Shown here: one piece after another, positions 1-18,571 of the stretch
Layout: each line of letters opens with the position of its first letter
Numbering within the stretch: position 1 is the first letter of the stretch
Origin: an uncultured archaeon
GTDB lineage: Archaea; EX4484-52; JAADEF01
Assembly: GCA_964407715.1 (NCBI GenBank)
Contig: CAYOWP010000014.1
Coordinates: 1 to 21,677, forward strand
Direction of reading: 5' to 3'
Length of the DNA stretch: 21,677 nt
Made by a program: the position numbers and the translations under genes
The notes under the pieces: generated by a model
What the model was told of the DNA's origin: nothing
Databases searched by the model: none
The model's input: only the letters and a program-made list of their open reading frames with translations

Positions 1-104
1 TTCCATTAGTTTTATTAAACCCAGAAACTAAGGAATATAAGATACTAAGTAGAGAAAACGGCCCTGTTTACACTATAAGTGCTGTTCCTAAAAATCTGAG
101 ATAG
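1..104 (+). CDS. 3' end of an upstream gene (partial, ...PLVLLNPETKEYKILSRENGPVYTISAVPKNLR*)
   Basis: Frame open from position 3 to TAG at 102-104; protein-like composition; too short to identify. Confidence 0.5.
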   Translation, partial: PLVLLNPETKEYKILSRENGPVYTISAVPKNLR

Positions 105-106
105 AT

Positions 107-496
107 GGCATTGTCCAATAATTCTTTATTGTTAAGCGGAAAAATAGCCTTTTAAAATTTGGCTAATGGGAAAATATCGCTACCATAAAAGTTTAAGAGC
201 AGATAATCTCTTTAAAAGAATAGCTGCTTTATTGCCTTTTGAGAAGGTACATCTCTAACCTTTTGTTAAAGATTAGCTGCTCTGATGTGTGTTATTGATG
301 TGGTATGCTTCCTGTTAACCATGTTTTATTAAAAACATAGTTAACGAGAAAATATCTTCATTCACTCATGGAATGCAGCATGTTAATCTTTCGTTAAATG
401 TTAGTTGCTTCATAACCATTATAAAGAGTTAGCCACTATAAATGCTATTTGCGCGTTAAATTTCCGCTTAACAATAGAGAATTATTGGACAAAGCC
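107..496. mobile_element. Non-autonomous foldback/MITE-like element, copy 1
   Basis: 36-bp TIRs at 107-142 (GGCATTGTCCAATAATTCTTTATTGTTAAGCGGAAA) and 461-496, 34/36 complementary. Flanking 9-bp direct repeat GAGATAGAT (98-106) / AAGATAGAT (497-505). Interior built from GGTTAAC...GCTAACC arms. No transposase ORF. Confidence 0.85.
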
Positions 497-522
497 AAGA
501 TAGATAATCCTTAAGTTAGATT

Positions 523-530
523 TTTATAAA
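523..530 (+). promoter_or_regulatory. Putative TATA box for the S8 protease gene
   Basis: TTTATAAA 23-29 nt before the ATGs at 553/559, consistent with a leaderless or short-leader archaeal promoter. Confidence 0.5.
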
Positions 531-552
531 TTTAACAACCTTCATTAATTTT

Positions 553-3500
553 ATGTTTATGGGCAGATTCAGATGGGTTCTTATCATCATAATAATATTT
601 ATTTTTTTGTGTAACACATCAGCAGGAGCAACTATCCACAAAAAATTCATTGATCCAATAATCGAAAAAGATTTAAAAAAGTATGAAAGAGAATCTCTTT
701 TTGAATCTATAAAGAGTTATCTAAGTAAAGAAAAAGAAGGAGAATATGATATCCTTGTATGTTCAAAGGAGCCAATCAAAAATGAGAAAATATTATTCAA
801 AACAAGAAACTGTTATTGGTACGGCAAGAAGAAAGTAAACCTCAAGAAAATAATGGCGCTAAGAAAAAATAAGGACATAATCTCGATAATGACATCAAAA
901 AAATATGTTCCTACATTGGAATACGCGATACCTTTCACATCAGGAAATTTAAGTTATTATGATACAACACCAAGAAACTTTCTTTATTATAAAGGTAAGA
1001 TTATAAATGGAAGCAATGTTAGGATAGCCATAATAGATACTGGAATAAACACATCTGAATCATGGTTTGGAGATGCTAAAATTATATATAAAGGAAGAAT
1101 TTACTATGATTCACAAGTTGGTTGTATAGAAGATACGAAGAGCTATGCAGATTATGATGGGCACGGAACACATGTTGCAGGAATTGCGCATGCTATTGCT
1201 CCAGGAGCAGAGTTAATAATACTGAAACCTTATGATGATACAACTGGAACTTTCTCAGATGTTGATATAATATGTGCAATAAACAAAGCTCTTGAATTAA
1301 ATGCCTCAATAATTTCTCTATCCTTAGGAGGATTCCCAATCTTTACAGATTGTGATGAGATGACAGATTCGCTATGTTATTACATCTCCCAAACCATTAC
1401 TTCATATCCTGAGGTGATATTTTCAATAGCTGCAGGTAATGAAGGAGATAATAAGATGCATTTTGGGAATTATCTTAGAAATTCAACAGTTAATTTGACA
1501 TACTTAAAAGATGCTGTTGATGACATTACCATGTTAATAAGATGGTATAACACAAGCAAGATAATCAAAAAAATAGAAATAATAGATGCATTAAACGCTG
1601 ATATCATAGGTATAGTGGGATATAATGGAACTGATTATATCTTCAATTACACCTATAATCCTTCAGCATCTTCTTTGTATTATTTCTGTACCCAAAATCA
1701 GTGCATTCTTTTCATTGATATTCAACATTCTAATGAAGAATATAATATTACAATTTCCTCAGAAGAAATGGATTATGATGTATATGCATATGATGTATTT
1801 ACAATGAATGAAAATACATTGCTTCCAAATAACAATAGCAGAAGCATTCTTACGCCTGGAATAAATCCTTTTGCATTTACAGTTGGAAGCATTGCTTCTC
1901 ACATATATGACTCGGGAAAACCTCATAGCAACATAGGAGAAATCTCTTTTTTCTCTTCAAGAGGGGATGTGAAAATAAATGATTCATATCCAATTTTAAA
2001 GCCAGACATAGTTGCTCCAGGAGAGCAAATATTGTCAGCATCTGCATATTATGGGAGTTATGGATGCATTATGGCGGGAACATCAATGTCAACACCTTTC
2101 TTCTCTGGTGTTTTAGCATTAATAAAACAAATACTACCATCAATAACCACAAAGGAAATTAGAGAAAACATAGGAAATATTACAGATAAAGATTCTTATT
2201 CCTTAATGAATTTTGCACCAATTGATAAAGGATACGGCTTAATTAACATCTCTAAAGTGTTACTATCATTACCTGAAATACATATTGGCTCGATTGCTAT
2301 TGAGGTGTACAATCCAAACATTAGCAATTATACCTTGATTTTGAATGTATCTCTAATTAGAGGATCTTTCAGAGCAAAAATAGCTAATGAAACTTTATTG
2401 CCCAATGAAACAAAAAATATGAGTTTTTCTTATACTATTCCTGAAAACCTAACAGCTGGGAATTATACTTTCCAACTTAGCATAAATGGAGAATTTATAA
2501 ATTCTCCATATAAAGAGATTATCAACTTAACAGCATATAGCAATATCTCATATAGGAATCTAAGAATATGGATGGATAATGATACATATAATGTAACCTT
2601 AACCCTACTAAATTATGGATTTCCAACCATGTGCAATCTCACATTGAATGATACCACTTTACCCATTAGGATTAATAGTACAAAGCGTATAGAGTTTACA
2701 AATAATCGTAAGTGTGATGACATAGAGGTTTCATGTATAAATAATATAGGGATCAAAAATATTCCTTTAGCAGAGCTTCATATGAACATTAGCACTGCTA
2801 ATCTCTCAATATTTGATAACTTAACAATAAATATTACACATACAATCTTGTTCCCATATAAATTAATAAGATATCATGCAAGAATTGGTGAAAAGGAATA
2901 CGTGGTTGAGAATTTATCAACTCTTACAATTCCAATAATTGATTTCATGAAGAATCAAACATACAACTATAATTTATCATTAAAAGCAGAAATAATAAAA
3001 CCAAATAATGAAAGTGTTAATGTATCTCTTGCAAGAAATCTTCCAATAGCAATCTCAATACCTCTAAACATCTCAATCTATGCAGAAAATACGAATAACC
3101 CAAAATACATTGGAATAAACTCAACAATCTCTATAAATATAAATCTTACAAAGAATATAACATCAAATATCTCTTATAGGATTGTGTTCCTTAATAATAC
3201 CATAGAATTCTTGACAACCAATACTTCAGTTAATCTCTCATGGAAGCCAAATCTAACAAATTTCACTGGAAATGACAACATAAGCGCTAATTTGTCTTTG
3301 TTCCTTATATATAAAAATAAAACGTTGTTCTTGAAGAATATTTCCTTTTTTGTAGATTTAAAGCCTCCGGAATTTTTATTAAAAAATACAACCAACATAG
3401 AGCATATATTGCTTCCTTTAAAGATAAATGAATCAAATTTATATGAAATAAAAATAGAGTATGAAAACTTTACAAAAAAATACTCCTCAAATGAGATTCA

Positions 3501-4596
3501 AGAATTTCTATTATTAGATATCTGTAAAAACATAACTTTGAATATAACCTTGGAAGACATAGCAAAAAATTATGCATCTTATATCTTAAATGCCTCATGC
3601 ATTCCAATCCCATCAAATTCCACATATAACCTAACAAGAAAATATGTATATGCAATGCATCTCAAAGAAGACATTAATATATCTCAAATTCCTGTGCTCG
3701 TAAGATATGAAAAACAAACCACAAAAATAACAATTGAAGGAGATAAGAAAAAATACACTCTGAATAAAAGCATAAAACTCATTCCAAATACCAAAGACGT
3801 ATTTGTAATTATAAACTTTACAATTCCCTCAGGTGGATATGACATTAAGAGCATATATAAAATAAATACCACAGAGAAAGAAATTACAAATCAATCGTTT
3901 GTAAGCAGCGGAATGTTATTTATTTCTTTAAATCTCTCGACGGATCCTTTAATTTATGTGGTATTCTATAAAGAAGAAAAAATAAAGAAATCAAAAGCCT
4001 CATCAGGTTCATCACATTCTTATAGAAATATAGTTTCTTCAGGAGCAATCTCAGAATCAAAAAATCAAACATCTCAAATAAAACATTCAAATAAAAAAGA
4101 ACCATCATGGAAGATAATTAACCAAACAGAAAATACAATAGAGATTGAGATATTAGAGAACTGTTCATTTGAAATTCCAATCTATAATATATCTATCTTG
4201 CTATCCTTTAACAAAACAAAGGAGGAAAAGGGATACTTAAAAATAACATATAACAAAATCCTAAAAACCATTAAGTTGTTTTTGGAGGTGATTGGCGGAA
4301 AAGCAAAAATAATAAACATCTCATCAAAAAACATTACTCAGATGTATATAATATGCATCAATAATACAAAGATGGAATTATGTTCGCTACCAATAAACAT
4401 AAAAGATAATTTTACAATTGCAATAAAAGAGAAAGAAATCTTAAAAGCGATATACTTAAATAAAACAACTCAAAATCAATATGCTGAGACATCAAAAGAA
4501 GAAACCACAAAAAGTTTGTGGTATTATGCGGCTTTTTTATTCTGCACATTTATGATATACATCTTTATTAAATATCTTATAAAACTAAAGTCATAA
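553..4596 (+). CDS. Secreted, C-terminally membrane-anchored subtilisin-like (S8) serine protease
   Basis: N-terminal signal peptide; IAIIDTG (Asp), DGHGTHVAG (His), AAGNEG (oxyanion Asn), KPDIVAPG, GTSMSTP (Ser); long C-terminal region rich in N-x-S/T sequons; Ser-rich linker; terminal TM helix with basic tail. Confidence 0.93.
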   Translation: MFMGRFRWVLIIIIIFIFLCNTSAGATIHKKFIDPIIEKDLKKYERESLFESIKSYLSKEKEGEYDILVCSKEPIKNEKILFKTRNCYWYGKKKVNLKKIMALRKNKDIISIMTSKKYVPTLEYAIPFTSGNLSYYDTTPRNFLYYKGKIINGSNVRIAIIDTGINTSESWFGDAKIIYKGRIYYDSQVGCIEDTKSYADYDGHGTHVAGIAHAIAPGAELIILKPYDDTTGTFSDVDIICAINKALELNASIISLSLGGFPIFTDCDEMTDSLCYYISQTITSYPEVIFSIAAGNEGDNKMHFGNYLRNSTVNLTYLKDAVDDITMLIRWYNTSKIIKKIEIIDALNADIIGIVGYNGTDYIFNYTYNPSASSLYYFCTQNQCILFIDIQHSNEEYNITISSEEMDYDVYAYDVFTMNENTLLPNNNSRSILTPGINPFAFTVGSIASHIYDSGKPHSNIGEISFFSSRGDVKINDSYPILKPDIVAPGEQILSASAYYGSYGCIMAGTSMSTPFFSGVLALIKQILPSITTKEIRENIGNITDKDSYSLMNFAPIDKGYGLINISKVLLSLPEIHIGSIAIEVYNPNISNYTLILNVSLIRGSFRAKIANETLLPNETKNMSFSYTIPENLTAGNYTFQLSINGEFINSPYKEIINLTAYSNISYRNLRIWMDNDTYNVTLTLLNYGFPTMCNLTLNDTTLPIRINSTKRIEFTNNRKCDDIEVSCINNIGIKNIPLAELHMNISTANLSIFDNLTINITHTILFPYKLIRYHARIGEKEYVVENLSTLTIPIIDFMKNQTYNYNLSLKAEIIKPNNESVNVSLARNLPIAISIPLNISIYAENTNNPKYIGINSTISININLTKNITSNISYRIVFLNNTIEFLTTNTSVNLSWKPNLTNFTGNDNISANLSLFLIYKNKTLFLKNISFFVDLKPPEFLLKNTTNIEHILLPLKINESNLYEIKIEYENFTKKYSSNEIQEFLLLDICKNITLNITLEDIAKNYASYILNASCIPIPSNSTYNLTRKYVYAMHLKEDINISQIPVLVRYEKQTTKITIEGDKKKYTLNKSIKLIPNTKDVFVIINFTIPSGGYDIKSIYKINTTEKEITNQSFVSSGMLFISLNLSTDPLIYVVFYKEEKIKKSKASSGSSHSYRNIVSSGAISESKNQTSQIKHSNKKEPSWKIINQTENTIEIEILENCSFEIPIYNISILLSFNKTKEEKGYLKITYNKILKTIKLFLEVIGGKAKIINISSKNITQMYIICINNTKMELCSLPINIKDNFTIAIKEKEILKAIYLNKTTQNQYAETSKEETTKSLWYYAAFLFCTFMIYIFIKYLIKLKS

Positions 4597-4604
4597 ATTA
4601 ATAT

Positions 4605-5297
4605 ATGGACAGAGATAAGGAATTAAAGGAGTTGTTTAAAAAAGCAGATATGCTTTTCCCATATCAAAAAAGAAGGGAAATCATATCGAGAATATGTGAA
4701 AAGATATATGAAATTGACAACATAGAAATACCACCAAAAATACAAAGAGTGGCAGCAAAGGTGAATAGAGGATATTTTGTACCAGAAAAATATCTAAATT
4801 ATGCATATGAAGATACTCCTCTTCCATTAATTAAAAATCAAACAATATCAGCAATCCATATGGTATTAATTATGCTAACATTGTTAAACATAAAAAAAGG
4901 TCAAAGGATATTAGAAATAGGTACGGGATCAGGATATAATGCAACACTACTCTCGCATTTGGTAGGTAAAAAAGGAGAAATAATAAGCATAGAATATTTT
5001 GATGAACTTTATGAATATGCCAAGAAAAGAATTTCTCTTCTTAACCTTGGTAATGTGCTTCTCATAAAAGGGGATGGAAAGAAAGGATATCCTTATAAGA
5101 AGCCTTATGATAGAATTATTTCAACAGCATGCGCAAAAGAGATATATCAAGCATGGAAAGATCAAATTGATGAGAAAAAAGGAATTATTTTGACTCCAAT
5201 ATATTACTCAGCATTCTCCCAAATGCTTGTAAAATATATAAAAAGGGAAGATAGAATAGAAACATATTTTCCTGTATCATTTGTGCCATTGCTATGA
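4605..5297 (+). CDS. pcm: Protein-L-isoaspartate O-methyltransferase
   Basis: R-x-x-F-V-P, AYEDTPL, QTISAIHMV, ILEIGTGSGYNA, GDGKKG..PYDRII and C-terminal FVPL motifs. Confidence 0.93.
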   Translation: MDRDKELKELFKKADMLFPYQKRREIISRICEKIYEIDNIEIPPKIQRVAAKVNRGYFVPEKYLNYAYEDTPLPLIKNQTISAIHMVLIMLTLLNIKKGQRILEIGTGSGYNATLLSHLVGKKGEIISIEYFDELYEYAKKRISLLNLGNVLLIKGDGKKGYPYKKPYDRIISTACAKEIYQAWKDQIDEKKGIILTPIYYSAFSQMLVKYIKREDRIETYFPVSFVPLL

Positions 5298-5338
5298 TTT
5301 TAATTAATATTTTTAAATTCTCAAAATTCTATATCAAA

Positions 5339-5405
5339 ATAGGGGATGATTATATCAGCCTTGTCTGAAAGAGTTTATGATGTAAGATGGGCGGAATGAC
5401 CCTAT
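5339..5405 (+). ncRNA. Box C/D methylation-guide sRNA
   Basis: Terminal stem ATAGGG/CCCTAT; C-like GATGATT, guide ATATCAGCCTTGT, D' CTGA, C' ATGATG, guide TAAGATGGGCGGA, D-like ATGA. Both guides pair with conserved archaeal 16S rRNA sequences (GCAAGGCUGA and CCGCCCGUC). Confidence 0.8.
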
Positions 5406-5462
5406 CTCAATTTAATATCTTTTCTATCTAATAGAAAAATAGAAAAAGAAAATTTGAAGGTG

Positions 5463-7109
5463 TTATTCTTCAAAATCCATATTGCCTGTATCCTTTCCTC
5501 CAGATGCCTTCTTAGCAGCTATCACATCATCTATTCTCAATATCATCTCTGCTGCCTCACTAGCAGATGCAATAGCTTGTTCCTTTATTTTTAATGGCTC
5601 TATTACTCCCATTTTCTCCATATCTTTAACATTTCCATCAAATACATCAATACCATAAGAAATTTTTCCTTCTTCATGCTTTGCTCTTAACTCCACCAAA
5701 ATATCAATTGGGTCTAAACCTGCATTCTCTGCTAAAGTGCGTGGAATTTCCTCTAATGCATCAGCAAATTTATTCACCGCTAACTGCTCCCTTCCTCCAA
5801 CCTTTTCTGCATATTTCCTTAACTCCTTTGCCAATGTTTCCTCTGTCGCACCTCCTCCAATCACAACTTTCCCACTCTCTAATGCTGAGGCTAAACTTTT
5901 TACAGCATCTTCCATTGCTCTGTACATTTCCTCTACAACATGCTCAGTACCTCCCCTAACAAGGATAGTTACTGCCTTAGGATCCTTACATTCTCTCACA
6001 AAAATCATATCATCTCCTGCTACCTTCTTCTCCTCCACAATACCAGCATATCCTAAATCATCAGATGTGAGATCATCAATGCTTGTTACTATTCTTGCTC
6101 CAGTAGCCCTTGCTAAAGCTTCCATATCGCTCTTTTTCAATCTTCTTGCAGCTAATATTCCCTTTTTGGCAAGATAATGTTGTGCCAAATCATCAATTCC
6201 CTTCTGAGTAAATACCACATTTGCTCCTGTTGATGCTATCTTTTCTACCATCTCCCTAATCATCTTTTCTTCCTGTTCAATAAATGCCTGTAATTGAGAG
6301 GGATCAGTTATCCTTATTTGAGCATCTGTCTCAGTTTCTTTAACCTCTATAGCAGCATCTAACAATGCAATTTTAGCGTTTTTAACTGTTGATGGCATAC
6401 CTGGATGAACTTTCTCTTTATCTAAGACAACTCCTCTTATGAGTTCTGTTTGTTCAATTGTTGCTCCTTCCTTCTTCTCAATCTTTATATTATCCAGATC
6501 TATTTCATATTTGCCATCTTTCTTCTCTATTATAGAAAGAACAGCATCAACTGCAACATCTGCTAATTTCTCCTTTGCTACCTCAGCTGATTTACCTGTG
6601 ATAGAGGTTAATGCAATCTTCTTTAGAGTTTCCTTATCCTTTAAAGATATTGATTTTGCTATTTTATGCAATACCTCTAATGCCTTATCAGTAGCCAATC
6701 TATATCCTCTTATTATTACGGTAGGATGAATATTTTGTTCAAGTAAACTCTCAGCCTCTTTTAAAAGAGCACCCGCAATAACCACAGCTGTAGTAGTTCC
6801 ATCTCCTACCTCGCTATCTTGTGTCTTTGCTACTTCCACAAGCATCTTAGCGGCTGGGTGCTGTACATCCATCTCTTCCAAGATAGTAACACCATCATTA
6901 GTTATGATTATGTCTCCTACGCTATCAACAAGCATCTTATCCATTCCTTTTGGGCCAAGTGTTGTTTTTACAGCATCTGCAACTGCTCTTGCAGCTGCAA
7001 TATTATTCTTTTGTGCTGTTTTACCAGTTTCCCTTATTGCTCCCTCAGGCAATATTAAAATTGGTTGTCCTCCTAAGTTACCTATATATGCACCTCTATC
7101 TCCAGTCAT
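5463..7109 (-). CDS. ths: Thermosome (group II chaperonin) subunit
   Basis: [20 protein letters not shown] and GDGTTTAVV motifs. Start moved from 7130 to the ATG at 7109, which follows the RBS GGAGGTGA (7115-7122). Confidence 0.97.
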
Positions 7110-7260
7110 AGTATTCACCTCCAAGTCCAAAATATTTTAATTTAAATTTTTTAGAGTTTTTCCAATTTGATCCTCAAGCATATCAAAAATGGAAAAACAT
7201 GCAATCTTTTTATAAATGAATTTCGAGTTATGATATATTATATATTTTTATAATTTTTAT

Positions 7261-7944
7261 ATGCCAAATTTAAAAAGATTAGATGTTCTATTTAATTTTA
7301 TGGATAATGCTGTTTATTGGAAAATAATTCAAATCTCAATTATTTTATTGTCAGTTATCGTTTCTGCAGTATTTTATAACATTCTACCTCATAAAATCGC
7401 GATTCATTGGAATACATCAGGTATACCAGATAAATTTGTTACAAAGAGTGTTGGCTTAAGTATTATACCTCTAATCATGCTTTTTATTTTCCTTTTATTT
7501 TCGATTATTCCGATAATAGATCCATTAAGATATAATATTCAGGAATGTAGAAAATATCATGAATGCTTAATTATTGTTTTTTTATGTTTTCTTTTTATAA
7601 TACATTTAGGTGTTATTTTAATTAATCTTGGAATAATTCATGACATAATTTTATTAGTGGATATCTCATTAGCAGGTTTATTATATTATCTTGGCATATT
7701 TCTACCTAAAGTTAAAAGGAATTGGTTCATAGGTATAAGAACTCCATGGAGTTTAAGTAGTGAAAGAATATGGAATAAGACCCACAAAAGAGCAGGAAAA
7801 TTATTCAAGGTTATTGCAGTTATTATGCTACTTATATTGGTTGTTCATTCATCAAAAGCGAGTCTATATGCTGGCATATTATTAACGATAATCTTATTGG
7901 CTTATTTAATTCTTTATTCTTACTATTTGTATTCAAAAACATAG
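7261..7944 (+). CDS. SdpI / DUF1648 family membrane protein
   Basis: LPHKIAIHWN..G.PD (DUF1648), NWFIGIRTPWSLSSERIWNKTHKRAG (SdpI), about 6 TM helices; start may be the ATG at 7300. Confidence 0.9.
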   Translation: MPNLKRLDVLFNFMDNAVYWKIIQISIILLSVIVSAVFYNILPHKIAIHWNTSGIPDKFVTKSVGLSIIPLIMLFIFLLFSIIPIIDPLRYNIQECRKYHECLIIVFLCFLFIIHLGVILINLGIIHDIILLVDISLAGLLYYLGIFLPKVKRNWFIGIRTPWSLSSERIWNKTHKRAGKLFKVIAVIMLLILVVHSSKASLYAGILLTIILLAYLILYSYYLYSKT

Positions 7945-7972
7945 TGTATAAAAAACCCAATTTTATTTTCTT

Positions 7973-8612
7973 TGAATTGGTTAACGAGAAGATATCGCTA
8001 TTCAGAAAGTTTTGGAGCAGATAACCTTTCAAAAAGGTTAGCTGCTCTGCTGTGGTTTGCTGATAAAGTATACCTTCTGTTAACAATTTTTTTATTATTG
8101 GTTAACGCGAAGAAATCTCTCTCACCCATGGTTTACAGCATTGTAACCCGCTTCGAAAAAGATTGGCTGCTCTGATATGGCTTGTTGATGAAGTATATCT
8201 CCCCATAACCAATATGAAATTGGTTAACACGAAGAAAATTGCCATTAACGAGCACCTCATAGCATGCTGATCTCTCCTGCGAGTTAGCTGCTAATTAACC
8301 GCTTTATTAGATTAGCTGCTATGATGCAGCTAATTGATAAGGTGTGGTTCCTGTTAACCAGATTTTTTATTTTTAATAAAAATGGTTAACTGGAAAATAT
8401 CACTTTATAGAGCATATTGCAGTAAGTAATTTCAAGAGGCTTAGCATGCTATTACATGCTTTGTTACTATTGATTTCTTTCCGTTAACCCACTCCAGAGC
8501 AGCTAACCATCTTAGAGTGGTTAGGAAGAAGATAACCTTATAGTAGTGGTTATGGTTATAGCATTCTGTAAGCCCTCTAAAAAATAGATATTTTTTCCAG
8601 TTAACCAATTCA
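7973..8612. repeat. Array of alternating inverted ~50-bp arms (about 5 palindromic units), same family as 107-496
   Basis: Repeated TGGTTAACnnGAAGATATC, GAGCAGCTAACC and their complements. Outer ends TGAATTGGTTAAC (7973) / GTTAACCAATTCA (8612) are perfectly inverted. No GGCATTG TIR seen. Confidence 0.85.
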
Positions 8613-8724
8613 TTAAACCGGTCAATAGTGAATAATCTGACTATCTAACAAAATTTTACCTTTTTAAATTTTTATTTCTAAAATCTTTAATTAAGAAAGC
8701 ATAACTTGTTATCTTAGAGTATTC

Positions 8725-8795
8725 GCGCCGGTAGTCTAGTGGTATGATGCCACCCTGCCACGGTGGAGGCCCGGGTTCAATTCCCGGCCGGCGCA
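8725..8795 (+). tRNA. tRNA-Gly (GCC)
   Basis: Acceptor stem GCGCCGG/CCGGCGC; anticodon arm CCACC-CTGCCAC-GGTGG; T-arm CCGGG-TTCAATT-CCCGG; CCA not encoded. Confidence 0.97.
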
Positions 8796-8806
8796 TATAA
8801 GTAAAG

Positions 8807-9664: not shown

Positions 9665-9679
9665 ATCACAACTTAAAAA

Positions 9680-10006
9680 TCAATAAATCTTATTAGTTTC
9701 TTTGTCTATCCATGCTGCATAATGAACTGAGAGATTCTCTATAGGTATGGCTATAAACTCAGCCACTTCATAATTATGCATTACAAGAACCTCGCTCTTA
9801 AGTTTTTCTATTAGTTCCTCACGTGTCTTCATAATTATGAGATATTCTTCACTATTCACTACATTGCCTTTCCACCAATAAAGGCTATTAACATTTGATA
9901 TGATATTAACACATGCTGCCAATCTTTTATTTAATACCACATTTGCTATTTTCTTTGCTACTTCATAATTATCTGTAGTTGTCATTACAATAAAATATTT
10001 TTCCAT
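9680..10006 (-). CDS. cutA: Divalent-cation tolerance protein CutA
   Basis: RLAACVNI, SLYWWKG, EEYLIIMKT and HNYEVAEFIA motifs; AGGTGG RBS. Confidence 0.95.
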   Translation of the reverse strand: MEKYFIVMTTTDNYEVAKKIANVVLNKRLAACVNIISNVNSLYWWKGNVVNSEEYLIIMKTREELIEKLKSEVLVMHNYEVAEFIAIPIENLSVHYAAWIDKETNKIY

Positions 10007-10016
10007 AATGGACCAC

Positions 10017-11522
10017 CTATATCCTTACAATTATATTATCTTTATGCAAATGCGGTAATTTCTTATGATTTAGATATATTTCATACTCTTCTGATGGAAT
10101 ATTAATCTCAAGGTTGTAATCCTTCATTTTCTCATCACATTCTATTTCAATTTTCTTTCTCTCTTTATCATAGATTATGTTGAGATTTATATTTTCATAA
10201 GATAATCCATGATAAAGGATTTTCTTTTCATATAAATGTTTATTTTCAAATTCCAAATGTATTTTATTTAGGATATTATTTACCTCCACTTTTATTATCT
10301 CCTTAAAGTATTTCATAAAGATAATAGTAGCGAAGAATATATCATTATAAAATAAAAGATAATTTTTGAGCGTATCATAATCATTGATTTCTAATCTGCT
10401 GAGCAAATGAGTATAGCTGTGTTTTTCCTTTGTTAGTTTTAAAATTACATAATCTCTCACGCTCTCGGGTAAATCCTTAAGATATATCTTTACCAATAGA
10501 TATATAGATAAAGGATCCTTTAAGAGGTTTTCATCTTTACTAAGAAAATCTATGACCTTTAGCTTTGTTTGGTAATCCTCTTTGTAAAGATGTTCAAATA
10601 ATATATATTCATCCTTGCTCTCTATTTTTATTTTTGTGAGATAATCCAAGAACTTTTCTATTTTTTCTTCTTTATGTGAAAATTTGGAATATGATTTTAA
10701 TAAAAACATAAAAGCATAGTTATATATTCCTCTATTCTTATGGATTTTCTTGCTTAACTCCTCAATGAATTTTTCTACTATTTCATGGCCTCCTAATTCC
10801 AATAATATTAAAGAAAACAATATTTGTCTTGTCATATCTTCTCCTATCTCAGCATAACATATCTTATTTTTTTCTTTTTCTTTTATGCTACTCGCAATCA
10901 TGCTCTTACATATATTGAGAAGAGAGTTTAAATGAATGTTATCTGTTTTTATAGTAAAATTATTTATGATATCATACATGCATGACACATATTTCCTGCT
11001 TTGTTTGTCATTATCATTGACAAGGATATATGGATGAATTCCTTCATGCTCTAAGTTATTTAATATGGAATCAATATAATCTCTGCTTCCATAAAGAATC
11101 GTGATTTTTTTTGATTCCAAAGGATTTATTTCCACGCGTAGTGATGATGAATCTCTTGATGAAATATTGTTAATGACTAATATCTTATCTTTATCTATGA
11201 TCCAACCCTCTCTTACATCATCCCACATAAAAGAGGAAGAAGAAATATACATGTTTATAGATTCTTTTTTATGAGCATTATTTTTTAATGATAACTTAAT
11301 ATAAAAACCTTTTTTTAATGAGAACACATAAGCATATCCGCTAACTAAGGATGTATTACTTTTTACCTTAAACACACTACCAAATGGATTGTCTATATCA
11401 TCTATCTGAAACTTGAGATTCTCAAATAAGATATCAAATGTTCCTTGAGTTTTATAATCAACAACCTTTATCTTCCTATGATCCAAAAAGAGATTTTCTT
11501 GAGGATTTGAGATTATAACCAT
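10017..11522 (-). CDS. Hypothetical protein (501 aa), possibly a degenerate glycoside-hydrolase-like fold
   Basis: Long ORF co-directional with cutA; beta-rich N-terminus, helical middle, beta-rich C-terminus; no clear catalytic motif. Confidence 0.7.
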   Translation of the reverse strand: MVIISNPQENLFLDHRKIKVVDYKTQGTFDILFENLKFQIDDIDNPFGSVFKVKSNTSLVSGYAYVFSLKKGFYIKLSLKNNAHKKESINMYISSSSFMWDDVREGWIIDKDKILVINNISSRDSSSLRVEINPLESKKITILYGSRDYIDSILNNLEHEGIHPYILVNDNDKQSRKYVSCMYDIINNFTIKTDNIHLNSLLNICKSMIASSIKEKEKNKICYAEIGEDMTRQILFSLILLELGGHEIVEKFIEELSKKIHKNRGIYNYAFMFLLKSYSKFSHKEEKIEKFLDYLTKIKIESKDEYILFEHLYKEDYQTKLKVIDFLSKDENLLKDPLSIYLLVKIYLKDLPESVRDYVILKLTKEKHSYTHLLSRLEINDYDTLKNYLLFYNDIFFATIIFMKYFKEIIKVEVNNILNKIHLEFENKHLYEKKILYHGLSYENINLNIIYDKERKKIEIECDEKMKDYNLEINIPSEEYEIYLNHKKLPHLHKDNIIVRI

Positions 11523-11584
11523 AAATAAAATAATATAAACACAATAATTATATATTTATTTTTGAGAACAAAAAGGGTGTTTAC

Positions 11585-11980
11585 ATGGCAAGCATTCCTT
11601 ACAATGATCAATCTAAAACACTCAAGGAGATAATTAAAATAATTAAGGAATTGGCCCAACGTATACGAATGATAGAGGAAAGAATCTCTAAAATTGAGAA
11701 TGCCATAAATGAGTTGAATACAAAGCTTCATGATGAACTTCAAATCATTAATGAATATAAAACTGAGACAAACAATAGATTAAATAAGTTGGAAGTTGAT
11801 ACTACAAATCAAGCAATAAACATAAAAAACATAGAAAGAAAATTAAAAGAATATGCTCGAAAGACAGAGTTAAGAGAACTAAAAGAATATATTGACCTAA
11901 TAAAACCAATTAATAAGATATATGTTACTCGGAAAGAACTAAAAGAAATTATGAAAAGAGAAAATATGAAAAATAAATAA
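11585..11980 (+). CDS. Coiled-coil hypothetical protein
   Basis: 131-aa ORF with heptad pattern; AGGGTG RBS-like sequence upstream. Confidence 0.8.
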   Translation: MASIPYNDQSKTLKEIIKIIKELAQRIRMIEERISKIENAINELNTKLHDELQIINEYKTETNNRLNKLEVDTTNQAINIKNIERKLKEYARKTELRELKEYIDLIKPINKIYVTRKELKEIMKRENMKNK

Positions 11981-11996
11981 GTTAGGGTCGAAAATT

Positions 11997-13616
11997 ATGG
12001 AAAAATCATTAAGAATACTTTTCTTGTTATTTTGTCAATATTTGCTTTTAAATGTTGTGTCAGCAGTTAAAATAAGTAATTGTGCCACTTTAACTGATAA
12101 TGGTTATTATATCTTAGGAAAGGATATATTCTTCACCTCTTCAGAATGTATCAAAATAGAGAATGTATCTTTTATGATATTTGATTGCAATAATCATTCC
12201 TTTTCTTCCTCTTTTTCAGGAACTGCCATTTTAATACATAATTCATCAAATGTTCACATATCCAACTGTAACTTCTATAACTCCACAACCTCTATTAATA
12301 TTACTAATGGCGTTAATATAACCATTAATAAAATATATGATTATAACTCTACATTATCTCTATATTTAGAAGATGTTAACAGCACAAATATATTTGACAT
12401 CTCACTTGAGGAACTAAGTAAGGGAATATATGCAATGAAATCCAATAATCTCAATATATCATATCTCTCTATTAAAGGCTTAGGAAATGAGAATGGAATA
12501 AAGATAGATAACTCCAATGAAATTAATGTCTCTCATATCAATATCTCTTCTTTCTCTTATGGAATTATAGTTAACAACACACAAAACATGAAGATATTTA
12601 ACAATAATATATCCTATAATACCTATGGAATCTGTACAAAAAACTCAAATTATATAACAGTCTATAATAATTTATTCATAAACGATGTGAACTTTCAAGA
12701 TGATGGCTCATCAAACATTTATTTGTCAATCTCCAAGGATTGTACGCAAAAAGCCATAACAAAGGCTCCTTGTATTGGAGGAAATTTTTGGGGAAATTCA
12801 ACAAAAACTGATTTCTCAGACACTTGCAACGATACTAATGGAGATGGTTTTTGTGATAATTCTTATACAATAGGATCACTAACAGACTCTTTACCTTTAT
12901 CGCCCTATATATTCATTAATGTAAAAATTAACCCAACCAATTATGATGTTAATTCAACAGAAGAATTCATAATTAAAGGAAATGCAAAAATAATGCCATA
13001 TCTTGCGCCATATGATGGAGATGTAAGTGTTTATTTATCCTCAAGCGGATTCATAAAAAACATATCTTCAAATAATGGGAACATCTATGATTCATTTATT
13101 CATCCAGCAAATTCATATGATAAGCAAGCATATCTCATAGGCTATAATGCAAGTTATATCTCCAACAATACCTATTACCTCATGCCAAGAATCTTTACTC
13201 TTGGCATAAAAATAAAAGGAGGAGTTCCAGTAGAAAGGAATTCTGTATATAAATATTCTCTTATAATGGTAAATAATCTTTACATCTTTCTTTTGCCGAC
13301 ATTATTTAAATCAGAAACAGCAGAGCTATATACATCTGAGCAAGGTCTAAAGGTGGATCCATCAATGGAAAGCATAATTATGGGAGTATTTCATTCATAT
13401 ACTGATAGTGATGCTTTGCGTAATAGAATATCTCTATTTTATGAGAATGAGTATTGTACCTTCTCTTTTGGAGATATTATAAATAAAAAATGTAATGTCG
13501 TTATTCCTATTTATTCTGAACTTCCATTGATGGCATCATTTAAATCTATAGGAGAAGGAAACTATGTTTTCATTTTGAAAAGATTAAGGGATAGTATTAG
13601 TCTTAGTTTGAAATAA
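11997..13616 (+). CDS. Secreted NosD-like right-handed parallel beta-helix protein
   Basis: Signal peptide; ISNC..L..GYYIL..DI, FDCNNH, repeated GI-x-x-x-NS-N-x-x-I units; GGNFWG...CNDTNGDGFCD cap motif. Confidence 0.85.
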   Translation: MEKSLRILFLLFCQYLLLNVVSAVKISNCATLTDNGYYILGKDIFFTSSECIKIENVSFMIFDCNNHSFSSSFSGTAILIHNSSNVHISNCNFYNSTTSINITNGVNITINKIYDYNSTLSLYLEDVNSTNIFDISLEELSKGIYAMKSNNLNISYLSIKGLGNENGIKIDNSNEINVSHINISSFSYGIIVNNTQNMKIFNNNISYNTYGICTKNSNYITVYNNLFINDVNFQDDGSSNIYLSISKDCTQKAITKAPCIGGNFWGNSTKTDFSDTCNDTNGDGFCDNSYTIGSLTDSLPLSPYIFINVKINPTNYDVNSTEEFIIKGNAKIMPYLAPYDGDVSVYLSSSGFIKNISSNNGNIYDSFIHPANSYDKQAYLIGYNASYISNNTYYLMPRIFTLGIKIKGGVPVERNSVYKYSLIMVNNLYIFLLPTLFKSETAELYTSEQGLKVDPSMESIIMGVFHSYTDSDALRNRISLFYENEYCTFSFGDIINKKCNVVIPIYSELPLMASFKSIGEGNYVFILKRLRDSISLSLK

Positions 13617-13742
13617 TGGGGACGCTGGGATTTGAACCCAGGGCCGTGGGTTTCCCCACTCTACGAATCATTGCATTAGAGCTCATAGCTCCACAGCATA
13701 TATGCTCTGGAGCCCACGATGTTCCCGCTACACCACGTCCCC
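13617..13742 (-). tRNA. tRNA-Trp (CCA) with a 55-nt intron at position 37/38
   Basis: Acceptor stem GGGGACG/CGTCCCC; anticodon arm GTGGG-CTCCAG^A-CCCAC; T-arm CTGGG-TTCAAAT-CCCAG; 71 nt after removing 13652-13706; BHB with CUCC/GGGG helix and AG^A / AA^A bulges. Confidence 0.95.
13652..13706 (-). ncRNA. tRNA-Trp intron with a putative C/D-type guide for Cm34
   Basis: Intron contains TGGAGCT-ATGA, complementary to tRNA positions 30-36; the 5th nt upstream of the ATGA box pairs with C34. Confidence 0.55.
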
Positions 13743-13789
13743 AAATACACACAATATTATTTAAAATCTATTATGTTTTTAAAAGATTT

Positions 13790-14422
13790 ATGGCAAGGAA
13801 CATGCATGTCTCTTCTCCTGAAGATATCATAAGAAAACTCAAAGTATCATATGATAAATTCGCAGAGGATTTTGCGAATACAAGGAAAGATAAGGAATGG
13901 AAAGAAGTCATAGAGTATCTAAAATCTTTACCTTCAAACATCACACTTTTGGATGCAGGATGTGGTTATAATAGATATGGAAAATATATAAATGGAACTC
14001 ATGTATGCATGGATTTTTCAAAAAATCTTATAAAAATTTCCATGGCAGATTATCAGCAAAGCATATATGTTGTAGGAAATATAATAGATTTACCATTTAA
14101 AGATGCTTCCTTTGAGTATTCCATATGCATAGCAACTGTTCATCATTTACCTTCTAAGACACTAAGAAAGAGAGCTATTAATGAGCTTATTAGAGTATCA
14201 AGAAAAGCCATATTTTTAAGTGTCTGGTACAAGCATCAAAAAAAATTTGAAAATCTTCCAAAGGATGTAGATGTAATGTGGAGAAAGAAGTATTTCAGAT
14301 ATTATCATCTCTATGATTTCAAGGAAATTGTTGAAGACATAATTAAGGGCATGCATTATAAAGAGATTTTTTCTTTTGTTGATTATCACAAAAGAAATAT
14401 ATATGTTGAGATTGTAAAATAA
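13790..14422 (+). CDS. Class I SAM-dependent methyltransferase, Trm9/ALKBH8-like
   Basis: YDKFAEDFANTR..W, LLDAGCG, SICIATVHHL..LRKRAINELIRV, SVW, DVDVMW and RYYHLY resemble Trm9 motifs. Start set at ATG 13790 because the upstream ORF extension is antisense to the tRNA. Confidence 0.8.
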   Translation: MARNMHVSSPEDIIRKLKVSYDKFAEDFANTRKDKEWKEVIEYLKSLPSNITLLDAGCGYNRYGKYINGTHVCMDFSKNLIKISMADYQQSIYVVGNIIDLPFKDASFEYSICIATVHHLPSKTLRKRAINELIRVSRKAIFLSVWYKHQKKFENLPKDVDVMWRKKYFRYYHLYDFKEIVEDIIKGMHYKEIFSFVDYHKRNIYVEIVK

Positions 14423-14445
14423 AGCTCAGCAAAGATCAAGTATTG

Positions 14446-14772
14446 CTAAGCAAAATAAAGATAATTCTTCAAATTTTTTATCCTTCTCTTTTTCTCATCA
14501 ACTTCTATTCCCTCTTTTTTAAGTTTTCTTATTTTTTCTTTAATTCCTATGTTATATCCACCAAGAGAGCTGTCACTCTTTACCACTTTATAGCATGGAT
14601 ATATTTCTGGATGTTTATTGGATGCTAAAATCTTTCCTATCACACGCGGATGAAGATGAAAGATATCTCCAAGCATTTTATAGGTAACAATCTTACCATT
14701 AGGTATCTTAAGTAAAAAAGAGAAGATCTCCTTCTTTATATCCTCAAAATTATTTTTTTTGTATCTCTGCAT
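14446..14772 (-). CDS. MGMT/Ogt-family (methylated-DNA--protein-cysteine methyltransferase) C-terminal-domain protein
   Basis: IPNGKIVTYK, HPRVIG, PCYKVV (canonical PCHRVV) and LGGY...KLKKEG motifs. Start probably ATG 14772, since the longer ORF overlaps S27ae. Confidence 0.85.
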   Translation of the reverse strand: MQRYKKNNFEDIKKEIFSFLLKIPNGKIVTYKMLGDIFHLHPRVIGKILASNKHPEIYPCYKVVKSDSSLGGYNIGIKEKIRKLKKEGIEVDEKKRRIKNLKNYLYFA

Positions 14773-14917
14773 ATCCACAATACCCACAAAACCTTCTCCC
14801 TGGCATCTTAGCAAGTATGCCTGTTTTGCATTTTGGACAGAGATCAAAATCTCTTATTAATTTTCCGTTCTCTATTTTATATTTTTTCCAAATATCCACC
14901 TTGGCATGTTTTCCCAT
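14750..14917 (-). CDS. rps27ae: 30S ribosomal protein S27ae (eS31), missing from the ORF track
   Basis: 55 aa MGKHAKVDIWKKYKIENGKLIRDFDLCPKCKTGILAKMPGEKVCGYCGYAEIQKK; CPKC...CGYC zinc ribbon; GGTGA RBS; canonical position after S24e. Confidence 0.92.
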   Translation of the reverse strand: MGKHAKVDIWKKYKIENGKLIRDFDLCPKCKTGILAKMPGRRFCGYCGYAEIQKK

Positions 14918-14926
14918 AATCATCAC

Positions 14927-15217
14927 CTAAGAAGTTGCTTCTTTTTTCTCTTTCTCTATGGTAATGGGTTTAGAATATATCAAAGCAAAAAATTCAAACA
15001 TTCTTCTTCCAGGCTTGCCCATAATATATTTTAAGTTAATGTGATTCTCTGGCACTTTATACTTAGATGATAAATATGAAATCATATATGCCTTTGAAGG
15101 AGTCCCTTTTGTTGAGATTACTATACCTCTAACCTCCTTTCTATTAAAGATTACATTTTCCTTCTCATTTTCTATTTTAACCTCATATTCCTCATTTGTT
15201 TTTTCATCCCCGCTCAT
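14927..15217 (-). CDS. rps24e: 30S ribosomal protein S24e
   Basis: EKENVIFNRKEV, GTPSK and ALIY motifs; position after spt4. Confidence 0.88.
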   Translation of the reverse strand: MSGDEKTNEEYEVKIENEKENVIFNRKEVRGIVISTKGTPSKAYMISYLSSKYKVPENHINLKYIMGKPGRRMFEFFALIYSKPITIEKEKKEATS

Positions 15218-15230
15218 TATGCTATCACCG

Positions 15231-15422
15231 TCATAAAACTTTTAATGCATATCTACCAGGTACCTTTTTCTCACTTAGTTCTGCTATCTCAGAGTTCTCT
15301 GGATCTAAAATCAATATGATCCCTTTAAATGATGTTGATAAATCCCTATTTTTACACACAACACATTCCTTCCCTTCCTCTATTATTCTACCACATAATT
15401 TACATGCTTTTTCTGTTGCCAT
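15231..15422 (-). CDS. spt4: Transcription elongation factor Spt4 (RpoE'')
   Basis: KACKLC..CVVC and FKGIILILDPENSEIA...PGRYALKV motifs; second ATG chosen from AGGTGA RBS spacing. Confidence 0.95.
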   Translation of the reverse strand: MATEKACKLCGRIIEEGKECVVCKNRDLSTSFKGIILILDPENSEIAELSEKKVPGRYALKVL

Positions 15423-15441
15423 ATACATTCACCTTGCTATA

Positions 15442-16002
15442 TCATTTATTATCTTTAGCCTTTTTTTCTTTTTCTCTTTTTATCCATGAAACAATACCTA
15501 ATCCTGGCTGTTTTAATGTAAGCAAAATCTTATTTTTATCTCCCTTATCTAAACTAATGCCTATAATTCTAGCAATGGCGCTATCTCCAATTTTTATTAT
15601 TTTTTTGTTATCCTCAGTGACTAGTGTAGATGTTTTTTTATTGTATTTTAGGAACTCATCAGTAATCTGTGAAATATGGGCTAAGGCATCTATTGGTCCA
15701 AATCTTATAAAAATTCCAAAATTTGTAACATCAACTATTTCCCCTTTTACTACCTCATGTAACATGGGCTCAAAAACAATAGCTTTTGCTTTTACCGGAT
15801 AATACACATTAGGATCCTCTTCAAATATTTCTCCTTCCCCAATATCCAAAATTTCAAGTATCTTCAAAAAATAATATTTCTTTAAAACGATTTTTCCTTC
15901 ATAAATCTCTTTTAAAGACTCTTTTAGTGATTTCCTTTTGTCCTCTCCCAGCATTTCAGGTTTTACTGGAACTGTGGCATTAAAAATAATTTCCTTAAAC
16001 AT
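15442..16002 (-). CDS. rpoE1: DNA-directed RNA polymerase subunit E' (Rpo7)
   Basis: EVVKGEIVDVTNFGIFIRFGPIDALAHISQITD (S1 domain) and LTLKQPGLG..W; GGAGG RBS before ATG 16002. Confidence 0.96.
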   Translation of the reverse strand: MFKEIIFNATVPVKPEMLGEDKRKSLKESLKEIYEGKIVLKKYYFLKILEILDIGEGEIFEEDPNVYYPVKAKAIVFEPMLHEVVKGEIVDVTNFGIFIRFGPIDALAHISQITDEFLKYNKKTSTLVTEDNKKIIKIGDSAIARIIGISLDKGDKNKILLTLKQPGLGIVSWIKREKEKKAKDNK

Positions 16003-16029
16003 TTTTATTCCCTCCATAACTAACAAGAA

Positions 16030-16335
16030 TTATTTAATAATCTCAAATTTCTTTGCTCTGATGCATTTATTTGAGAGATTATATTTACCACATTCAGTAC
16101 ATTTAAACCTTAAGAATATCTTTTGAGAGGTTTTTGCACCATATTTAACTCCATGTTCCATCTTTGGATATGGGCTACCTCCATAACCATAATGCAACTT
16201 TTCAAGTCTGTATCTTGATCCTGCCTTTAATGAACTTGTTTTCCTTCTTCCAGATGTTTTTATTCTCTCCACTTTTTGAACTGTGTGCTTATTACATACC
16301 CTACAATATCTTTTTACATATAAAGGAATTTTCAC
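16030..16335 (-). CDS. rpl44e: 50S ribosomal protein L44e (eL42)
   Basis: KIP...RYCRVCNKHT, GYGG and K.FLRFKCTECGK motifs; GTG start at 16335 after an AGGTGG RBS. Confidence 0.95.
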   Translation of the reverse strand: MKIPLYVKRYCRVCNKHTVQKVERIKTSGRRKTSSLKAGSRYRLEKLHYGYGGSPYPKMEHGVKYGAKTSQKIFLRFKCTECGKYNLSNKCIRAKKFEIIK

Positions 16336-16388
16336 ATACACCACCTTTAATTATATGTTTAAAAACCTATTAAATTTAAAAAAGTAAT

Positions 16389-17265
16389 GGTTTCTAAGTG
16401 CTATAATATTGCTCATTAATAATGTGCCTCTCGTTAACCATTTTTTATTCTTTTTTATTATTGGTTAACGGAGAAATATCGCTTTTCAAAAAGCATATCA
16501 CAGAATCGCAACCTCTATTAAGGGTTAGCTGCTTCCTAACTGCTTTCAAGGATTAGGTGCTACAATGTGCTTCATTGAGAGGATCTCTTTTCCTTAACCA
16601 TTTTTGTTTTTAAATGATTTTGTTAACGCGAGGATATCGCTAATACAAAGGTTTGAGAGCAGCTAACCTCTTCAAAAAGGTTAGCTGCTCACAGACCTCT
16701 TCAAAAGGTTAGCTGTTGTGATGTGCTTCATTAAGAGTATCTCTTCTCCTTAACCATTTTTATTTTTAAATGATTTTGTTAACGGGAGGATATCGCTAAT
16801 ACAAATGTTTTGCAGCATGCTAACCTCATTTTTAAGGTTAGCTTCTTCGATGAGATTAGTTGATTATGTATTTCTCTCCTTAACCATTCTTATTTTTAAA
16901 AAATGGTTAACGGGAAGGATCACCCATTCAAACCAGCATTGCAGCAGGTAGCCTCTAGTAAGGTTACTTGCTCTGCTAGGGCTTGTTGATGATGTATATC
17001 TTCCGTTAACAATTCTTATAAAAATTTTTAATTGGAGTGATTAACTAGAAGAAATCGCCATCATCAAGACTTTGTAGCATTATTATCTCTTAGAAATGTT
17101 AGCTGCTGTAAATGTTCTCTGAGAGGATTACTCATCCCGTTAACCATTTTAAATGGTTAACTGGAAGAAATCGCTTTTACAAAGGCTTTTCAGCATGCTA
17201 ACCTAATTGAGTGTTAGCTGTTCTAATATGATTTCTTAGCAGATTGTTCCTTCCGTTAATCATTT
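16389..17265. repeat. Array of alternating inverted ~50-bp arms (about 6 palindromic units, 116-159 bp period)
   Basis: Forward-arm GTTAAC-type cores near 16464, 16622, 16778, 16906, 17040 and 17156, each followed by a GCTAACC..GGTTAGC-type hairpin and a reverse arm. Internal 90-bp direct repeat 16565-16654 / 16721-16810. Confidence 0.9.
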
Positions 17266-17391
17266 TTATTATTTTTATATCAACAGAGGCATCTTAGAGC
17301 ATTTATTCTTTTAAAGATGTTATCATCTTCTATCTGTAAAACTCTATTTTTAATTCATCTTTTTAAATAGAAAAATTTGATAAAAAATTTT

Positions 17392-18165
17392 ATGTATAAG
17401 AGGAGGAAGATCGTAAATTTTTTAGATGAACTCTTGGAAATTAACGAGATAGAGGATGAGTGGTATGATAATGGTCTTATTGTGGAAGGCAGAGATAAAA
17501 TATTTTCGATTTCTTTTGCTATAGATCCAACAAAAGATATTGTAAAAAAGGCAATAGAAAGAGAATATGATATGCTGATTACTCATCATGGAATATTTTA
17601 TAAAAAAGCACCTTTGAGGATCAAGGGCAACATAAAAAAGAAATTAAATATTTTGATAGAAAGCAACATAAATTATTATGTGGCCCATTTACCTTTAGAT
17701 ATTCACGAGGAAATAGGAAATGCGCCAAATATACTTAGAAGATTAAATGCAAAATTTCTCACCACATGGGTAGTAGACGGTATTGAAATAGGAGCAATTG
17801 GTGAACTTCAGAAATCGATATCGTTTAATGAGCTTTTAGAATTTTTCAAAGAAAGAATAACAAACAAGGTAATAGGTATGAATTTTGGTCCTAAAAATGT
17901 CTCATTGATATGTGCCATTTCAACAGATGTAAATGATATCATTTATGATAGCGTTGAGTTTGATGCCATAATTTTGCCAACAATGGATCATATTTCTTAT
18001 CAAGATGCAAAAGAGTATGGAATCAATGTTATATATGCGAATCAATATGATTTAGATAAAATTTGCTTTGAGCTTTTGAAATCCAAAATTTTGAGAGAGT
18101 TTCCAAAGTTGCATATAGATTTCTTGTATGATAAGGATATGATTTCAAAGAATATACTTTTATAA
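17392..18165 (+). CDS. Nif3-like (DUF34) dinuclear-metal-centre protein
   Basis: D...NGLIVEG, AID, DMLITHHGIF and HLPLDIHEEIGNA motifs; ATG 17392 preferred over TTG 17377. Confidence 0.9.
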   Translation: MYKRRKIVNFLDELLEINEIEDEWYDNGLIVEGRDKIFSISFAIDPTKDIVKKAIEREYDMLITHHGIFYKKAPLRIKGNIKKKLNILIESNINYYVAHLPLDIHEEIGNAPNILRRLNAKFLTTWVVDGIEIGAIGELQKSISFNELLEFFKERITNKVIGMNFGPKNVSLICAISTDVNDIIYDSVEFDAIILPTMDHISYQDAKEYGINVIYANQYDLDKICFELLKSKILREFPKLHIDFLYDKDMISKNILL

Positions 18166-18166
18166 T

Positions 18167-18514
18167 GGCATTATCTAATAATTTTTTAATGAGGATTTGT
18201 TAATGAGAAAATTTCTTCTTATAATCGCATTAGCTATCTAAGGTTTGCTGCTCTGATGTGCTTCTTTAAAAGACTGCTTTTTAACAAGGAATTATACCCA
18301 GTCAATGAGTAGCAATAGAGCAGCTAACCTTAAAGATGACATGCTACAAAACCTGTAGTAATAGCGATTTCTTCCCGTTAACAATTTTTATCCATTCAAA
18401 ATAATTGGTTAACGGGAAGCATATCCCTATTCAAAAGGGTTAAACCGCTATAAGTGCCATTTGAGAGGTTATGTTTCCGCTTAACAATGAAGAATTGAAT
18501 TATTGGACAATGCC
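18167..18514. mobile_element. Non-autonomous foldback/MITE-like element, copy 2
   Basis: Left end GGCATTATCTAATAATT; right end 18474-18514 is the complement of GGCATTGTCCAATAATTC(AATTC)TTCATTGTTAAGCGGAAA. Perfect 9-bp direct repeat TTTTATAAT at 18158-18166 and 18515-18523. Same internal arms as copy 1. Confidence 0.87.
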
Positions 18515-18530
18515 TTTTATAATGATAAGA

Positions 18531-18546: not shown

Positions 18547-18571
18547 CATTTACGATACATAATTACTCTTT

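Follow-up and report, generated by a model that had tools for sequence, protein, structure and literature searches.

A family of small non-coding elements with IS903-like ends and 9-bp target-site duplications in the genome of an uncultured archaeon

Two short non-coding elements, each bounded by inverted ends and flanked by 9-bp direct repeats, lie in a 21,677-nucleotide stretch of DNA from an uncultured archaeon (assembly GCA_964407715.1, contig CAYOWP010000014.1; hereafter the window) and raise the question of the kind of mobile DNA they represent and of the transposase that could have moved them. The window is one complete contig of an assembly of 16 contigs and 898,521 bp with a completeness rated at 92%, and the sequencing runs that contain its DNA carry the label of hydrothermal vent metagenomes. 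The two elements, E1 and E2, belong to a family of MITEs (miniature inverted-repeat transposable elements) dispersed over the archaeal genome, which is an ordinary kind of selfish DNA and not a new class. The family probably derives from an insertion sequence (IS) of the IS903 group, which belongs to the IS5 family, and its copies were in that case moved in trans.

A search of the host genome with the outermost 18 nt of the element, GGCATTGTCCAATAATTC, allowing up to three mismatches, identified 116 termini (115 without the redundant contig C9), comprising 37 exact copies and 38, 25 and 16 with one, two and three mismatches, respectively. At up to one mismatch the 18-mer gives 75 genome matches, against none for the reversed-pattern control. 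Forty-five pairs of termini face each other at distances of up to 3 kb and delimit elements of 89-390 bp, whose lengths concentrate around 150 and 250 bp. A further 26 termini are unpaired; 21 of these run on into at least 100 bp shared with paired copies and are therefore regarded as copies with a decayed partner end, and no long open frame was seen by reading in four of the other five. The redundancy concerns positions 7161-50856 of contig C8, which are the exact reverse complement of positions 262-43957 of C9 (43,696 bp, 100%), both blocks adjoining a 100-N gap. Contig C9 is a redundant assembly copy and genome-wide counts are therefore inflated; they were corrected for it where stated, the host genome (G000, ~0.85 Mb) then comprising 854,509 non-redundant bases.

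Target-site duplications were examined in the 45 pairs with the element boundaries set by the 18-mer in a fixed register. At a length of 9 bp, the two flanks are identical at eight or more of the nine positions in 19 of the 45 pairs, seven of these being perfect, as against two pairs with at least 7/8 identity at 8 bp and four with at least 9/10 at 10 bp. None of the 1980 combinations of a left flank with the right flank of another copy, and none of the 45 outward-shifted 9-mers, reaches 8/9. A preliminary interpretation of the window, made from its letters without database searches (the sequence-only reading), had proposed that 9-bp duplications characterise the whole family, and the genome-wide comparison bears this out. 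One insertion is nested in another, the copy at positions 20753-21054 of contig C13 having GCATTGTCT as its flanking repeat, a sequence with which the end of a different element begins.

Both the ends and the duplications point to the IS903 group. A complete IS903B in an Escherichia coli chromosome (L158) measures 1057 bp, terminates on either side in the 18-nt repeat GGCTTTGTTGAATAAATC, is bordered by a 9-bp duplication, CCTAAACGT, and encodes a transposase with the PF13737 and PF01609 domains. The archaeal 18-nt end is identical to this repeat at 14 of 18 positions, ungapped and in register from the terminus, and both start with GGC; the right end of E1 agrees at 15 of 18. IS903B is also reported to yield 9-bp direct repeats (PMC9769513). 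The archaeal copies thus share with IS903B an 18-nt GGC repeat and the length of the duplication, and differ from it in being non-coding, whereas IS903B is autonomous and encodes its transposase, a gene of which the archaeal assembly holds no copy.

The closest parallel in print is MITEAba12 of Acinetobacter. This element has GGCTTTGTTGCACAAA repeats and 9-bp duplications, is identical to its parent ISAba12 only at the ends, and is proposed by the authors to be mobilised in trans (PMC6382973). It resembles the archaeal family in being non-coding, in its terminal repeats of the form GGC.TTGT and in its 9-bp duplications; on the other hand, its 16-nt repeat is identical to the archaeal end at 10 of 16 positions, and it is a single 113-bp type in a bacterial host whose genome also contains the parent IS, without a modular body of hairpin units (PMC6382973). 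The suggestion that the archaeal elements are of an undescribed kind is not supported, since MITEs of IS with GGCTTTGT... ends and 9-bp duplications are already in print (PMC6382973); this particular family did not turn up in the public genomes that were searched.

Within the window, the features listed in Table 1 agree with much of what the sequence-only reading had described, namely elements with inverted ends and 9-bp flanking repeats (8/9 in E1, 9/9 in E2), non-autonomous (no open reading frame (ORF) of 80 or more amino acids lies inside either element in the window's ORF list) and with modular palindromic interiors. The inverted arms of E1 (106-142 against 461-497, 37 nt) are 95% complementary. 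The right end of E2 is a complete GGCATTGTCCAATAATTC...TTGTTAAGCGGAA end with an additional 5-nt AATTC duplication, whereas its left end has only the outer 18 nt in common (GGCATTATCTAATAATTT, 15/18) and then passes into a different subterminal type, TTTAATGAGGATTTGTTAATGAG. A NIF3-family gene at 17377-18165 ends in a TAA stop codon (18163-18165) that falls within the left duplication of E2. As single strands, both elements fold far more strongly than shuffled sequences (z = -8.95 for E1 and -5.79 for E2).

Table 1. Elements, flanking duplications and hairpin-unit arrays in the window
Feature	Position	Strand	Remarks
MITE copy E1	107-496 (390 bp)	none	inverted ends; three hairpin-unit matches; no ORF of 80 or more amino acids
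E1 left target-site duplication	98-106	none	GAGATAGAT; 8/9 identical to 497-505
E1 right target-site duplication	497-505	none	AAGATAGAT; 8/9 identical to 98-106
E1 left outer 18-nt end	107-124	+	GGCATTGTCCAATAATTC; exact family consensus; 14/18 identical to IS903B inverted repeat; presumed transposase recognition and cleavage site
E1 right outer end	479-496	-	GGCTTTGTCCAATAATTC, reading inward; 15/18 identical to IS903B inverted repeat
MITE copy E2	18167-18514 (348 bp)	none	ends, flanking repeats; three unit matches inside
E2 left target-site duplication	18158-18166	none	TTTTATAAT; 9/9 identical to right copy
E2 right target-site duplication	18515-18523	none	TTTTATAAT; 9/9 identical to left copy
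Hairpin-unit array without MITE ends, ~five units	7978-8607	none	unit profile; adjoins tRNA 8725-8795
Hairpin-unit array without MITE ends, ~seven units in one shared orientation	16462-17264	+	unit profile

The interiors of the elements are built from a repeat that is more widespread than the elements themselves. An iterated nucleotide profile defined a palindromic unit with a 113-nt consensus, TGGTTAACGGGAAG...CTTCCCGTTAACCA, of which 414 non-overlapping calls were obtained; 71 of them fall within the 45 paired elements, and the other 343 lie elsewhere in the genome. The units cover 38,650 of the 854,509 non-redundant bases (4.5%), and units and paired elements together make up 4.9% of the genome. 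Element bodies contain one to three unit copies, the smallest elements (89-160 bp) having one unit or none, and the profile recovers three pieces each in E1 and E2; the ~50-nt arms in both orientations that had been noticed from the letters are present. The resemblance noticed there between the inner terminal repeat and the start of an arm is likewise seen across the family, the first unit match beginning at element position 22-34 in most of the 45 pairs; in ends reading ...TTGTTAAGCGGAAA, the opening bases of a unit make up this inner part of the repeat. The 20 nt that follow the 18-nt end fall into at least five types, A to E (43, 20, 21, 9 and 7 termini, respectively), plus 16 others. Two different subterminal types are joined in most elements, and only the outer 18-nt end is common to all.

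Pairing within the stem of the unit was assessed at 38 consensus pairs in 186 different units of full length. Watson-Crick combinations occupy 67.4% of the stem cells, against 20-35% in shifted controls; pairing is poor in mid-stem (33-65%), and G:T (8.9%) and A:C (7.9%) combinations are nearly equally frequent. This near equality gives no preference to either strand as RNA, which is what a DNA palindrome would show. In 184 units examined genome-wide, the palindrome continues past the GTTAAC cores, to the left as an A-run and to the right as a T-run, and each unit therefore resembles a two-way terminator consisting of a hairpin and a T-run.

We infer from these observations a mode of movement in which a DDE transposase of the PF13737 and PF01609 type would bind the outer 16-18 nt of each end, cut at the GGC termini and insert the element into a target opened by staggered cuts 9 bp apart, so that a 9-bp duplication would arise on repair. 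Such an enzyme would act in trans, encoded by a copy that lies outside this assembly or has since been lost. The 113-nt palindromic unit native to this genome forms the element bodies in one to three copies, and with the same short end present on at least five subterminal contexts the family looks as if it had been repeatedly re-assorted or re-formed from the end and the hairpin units; such re-assortment would account for the variable sizes of 89-390 bp.

The distribution of the family among other genomes was examined by sequence pattern searches. At up to two mismatches, the 18-mer has 100 matches in the host genome, whereas the order's 41 other genomes yielded single matches in three cases and the genome of the same genus yielded none; the hairpin units are found in none of these 41 genomes, the same genus included. 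Among 185,579 species genomes, the exact 18-mer gave 32 single matches, about the chance expectation, and all but one (L175, see below) looked like chance. A 21-base pattern matched neither species genomes nor viral contigs, and a 17-base pattern gave eight single matches in the viral contigs. A scan of metagenomes with a degenerate 18-mer yielded 80 loci among the matches listed, of which L038 is a real copy and L064 and L095 belong to the bacterial family described below, the other loci among the matches listed having looked like chance 18-mers. L038 is a contig of another metagenome record, from a near-identical strain, which is 99.64% identical to the archaeal genome over 4171 bp and shares with it one copy in an identical position. 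The family is thus restricted to this species among the genomes searched.

The exception, L175, lies in a genome (G042) labelled Candidatus Hydrothermia MAG (metagenome-assembled genome) and is a 204-bp element with inverted ends and a AATTTCTTT duplication. Two genomes of one vent bacterial lineage, G042 and G045, contain 242 and 340 matches to the end pattern, respectively, against 6 in controls for the former and at most 6 for the latter. The dominant bacterial end, TGCYTTGTCCAATAATTCT, is identical to the archaeal end at 17 of the first 19 nt. Among eight distinct ~200-bp bacterial pairs, five have flanks at least 8/9 identical at 9 bp and one more has 10/10, the corresponding control giving 0 of 56. 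The bacterial elements therefore resemble the archaeal family in their ends, in the 9-bp duplications, in their hundreds of copies and in breaking the assembly; they differ in an unrelated interior, in being mostly of one size class and in the domain of their host. The archaeal unit profile has no match in 51 kb of G042 and G045 loci, and therefore only the ends are common to both families. In a related genome, G055, a multi-copy element at which the assembly breaks on both sides has the end TGCTTTGTCCAAAAAGTG, and an ORF that starts ~50 nt inside this end matches PF13737 with 31.8 bits (cut-off 28.1), reaching a stop after 92 amino acids with the contig end shortly beyond. It is the only link, indirect as it is, between ends of this kind and an IS903-type enzyme.

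These similarities allow the tentative suggestion that one IS903-like lineage may have crossed between the domains at vents, the same end having been grafted onto the resident repeats of each host, such that MITEs would have been made repeatedly from an IS end and local palindromes and not by internal deletion of an IS. The hosts in question would be a DPANN-type archaeon and a bacterial lineage, whose elements differ at two positions in the first 19 nt.

Several observations weigh against derivation from an IS903-group element moved in trans. The proposed link to IS903 draws on 18 nt of sequence and on the length of the duplication. Six-frame Pfam searches of the archaeal genome gave no match to PF01609, PF13737, PF01797, PF00872, PF00665, PF12762 or PF13610 (PF07282 had two sub-threshold matches); the copy enclosing a DDE transposase that the sequence-only reading had suggested looking for was thus not found in the 92%-complete assembly, and an IS903-type transposase was not found in the bins of G042 or G045 either. 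No full-length element with the exact family ends was recovered from the 185,579 species genomes, from the viral contigs or among the metagenome matches listed. The copies are not young: in the ~250-bp class (19 copies), the best match of each copy to another is 86-93% identical, and 12 of the 19 good duplications have one mismatch, and the family may no longer be moving. An empty site did not come to light; not one of the 15 contig joints listed bypasses E1 or E2, a comparison that is uninformative since contigs break at repeats. E1 lies only 106 bp from the contig end, the E2 site is unreadable in the same-genus genome G001, where the NIF3 gene is 72% identical and different genes lie downstream, and among contigs of four vent or sediment runs compared with positions 1-20000 of the window, one contig of run X1 spans the left junction of E2 (16708-18268) without any difference.

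Some of these points also lend force to the idea of a fossil family, in which the transposase was lost, the copies became immobile and the variation in size arose only through recombination and slippage among hairpin units. This is quite conceivable, if somewhat short of probable: besides the missing transposase, the divergence within the ~250-bp class and the occupation of the same site in the near-identical strain, perfect duplications number only seven in 45 pairs. Against it, the exact 18-mer is kept in 37 of the 116 termini, though the search itself selected for similarity, and the absence of a transposase is weak evidence because short-read bins regularly lack multi-copy IS, of which the broken IS in G055 is an illustration. 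As for the identity of the enzyme, IS256-type elements can give duplications of 8-9 bp, and GGC-type ends occur in IS6 and IS1595, and the sequence-only reading had accordingly looked to a Mutator/IS256, IS6 or IS1595 origin. Such a transposase is improbable as the agent here, since the duplications peak sharply at 9 bp and not at 8, since the genome gave no match to PF00872, PF13610 or PF12762, and since the ends fit the IS903 group instead, matching IS903B at 14 of 18 positions in register with the same 9-bp duplication, and a near-identical end in G055 adjoins the PF13737 ORF. An IS6 or IS1595 derivative with an 8-bp duplication was considered specifically and rejected, in view of two of 45 pairs at 8 bp against 19 of 45 at 9 bp and of the absence of PF13610 and PF12762.

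Two further explanations concern the palindromic interiors. Eukaryotic foldback elements have inverted modular repeats with a strong fold-back potential, and the strong single-strand folding of E1 and E2 and their arms in both orientations had led to the proposal of an archaeal counterpart, in which long modular inverted repeats would be the functional arms. The family does not fit that description: the terminal repeat comprises just ~18-36 nt, with only the outer 18 nt common to all ends and at least five types in the next 20 nt; there are no long element-wide arms built of subrepeats; the units are self-contained palindromes lying mostly outside paired ends; and the smallest copies manage with one unit or none. 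In contrast to the eukaryotic elements, a short true terminal repeat is here combined with independent palindromes, the foldback likeness is superficial, and a counterpart of this type is most unlikely. Alternatively, the hairpin units, and with them the element bodies, could be structured-RNA genes or regulatory hairpins under selection instead of selfish DNA, as might be supposed from the polarity of the units, for which the profile scores one strand up to ~26 bits higher, from their intergenic position and the A-run and T-run that border them on opposite sides, and from the excess of Watson-Crick pairs over shifted controls. There is little to be said for this possibility given the near equality of G:T and A:C combinations, the poor pairing in mid-stem and the absence of the units from the other genomes of the order, and the only Rfam matches in the window are two tRNAs. 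Short palindromes of this sort are known in bacteria as REP/BIME (REPIN-RAYT) and Correia-type hairpin repeats, which are stacked in intergenic arrays like the archaeal units. Unlike them, the archaeal units are physically joined to IS-type ends with duplications, and unlike the REPIN-RAYT system, no Y1 (RAYT-type) transposase was found in the archaeal genome (PF01797, no match).

The assignment of the family to a known transposon group is of help in annotation, as such repeats break assemblies and are mistakable for RNA genes or CRISPR-like arrays. A genome of less than 1 Mb and of the reduced, symbiont-like type still holds ~5% of a single home-grown selfish-repeat family. A high density of MITEs in DPANN genomes has already been reported (PMC11602168), and the archaeal family is therefore a well-characterised example and not a new principle. 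The element family of G042 and G045 with nearly the same ends is new here, and the near-identical ends in archaeon and vent bacteria provide a concrete and testable case of an IS lineage common to two domains in one habitat.

Transposases of the expected type are present elsewhere in the archaeal order, PF01609 occurring in 22 of the 41 other genomes, with nine places that match the IS903B protein. Five of these nine loci (L159-L162 and L167) were rejected as partners of the family after a search for flanking inverted repeats that revealed no family-like ends, and reading of the flanks of the transposase ORFs in L159 and L160 showed no ends like those of the archaeal family. Two loci of the same order, L136 (G015, 1590-1618) and L138 (G036, 2940-3002), have in common the end of an element, GGCTTTGTGTAWAAAGTCC, in which GTGTATAAAGTC recurs two or three times in subterminal position. 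This end is situated 700-900 bp downstream of a gene for a PF01609 transposase; a matching left end was not found at these loci. In a genome of the same family (G003), a single copy of the archaeal end with one mismatch occurs at positions 34-51 of locus L001, at the start of a 1.5-kb contig and followed by unrelated sequence, and could be a relic or a chance match.

Two arrangements on contig C7 of the host genome involve copies of the family. At positions 54162-55078 (917 bp), two direct MITE copies of 251 and 154 bp enclose a 512-bp segment with an ORF for a ParE-family toxin (PF05016, 47 bits) and an upstream ORF of 63 amino acids. This region is bordered by TCAGTTCT on both sides in the manner of a composite transposon, and its inner junctions bear a direct AACATCAAA repeat, for which a cointegrate-like origin is one idea. 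At positions ~7264-7314, a remnant of ~45 bp retains a complete end, of whose counterpart just GGCATT is left, with AAATTCTTG on both sides, and looks like the product of an internal deletion after insertion.

The remainder of the window encodes, among other products, a thermosome, an RNA polymerase subunit of the Rpb7 type and the ribosomal proteins S24e and L44e, which identify the host as an archaeon. A tRNA match on the minus strand at 13617-13742 extends over 126 nt, against 71 positions in the model, and probably contains an intron; it sits exactly where the ORFs at 11997-13616 and 13616-14422 meet. Positions 18914-21676 encode a large surface-type protein of the beta-helix class (NosD/Beta_helix), which extends past the contig end and is built on 69-nt (23-amino-acid) repeats, 15 copies of which are listed.

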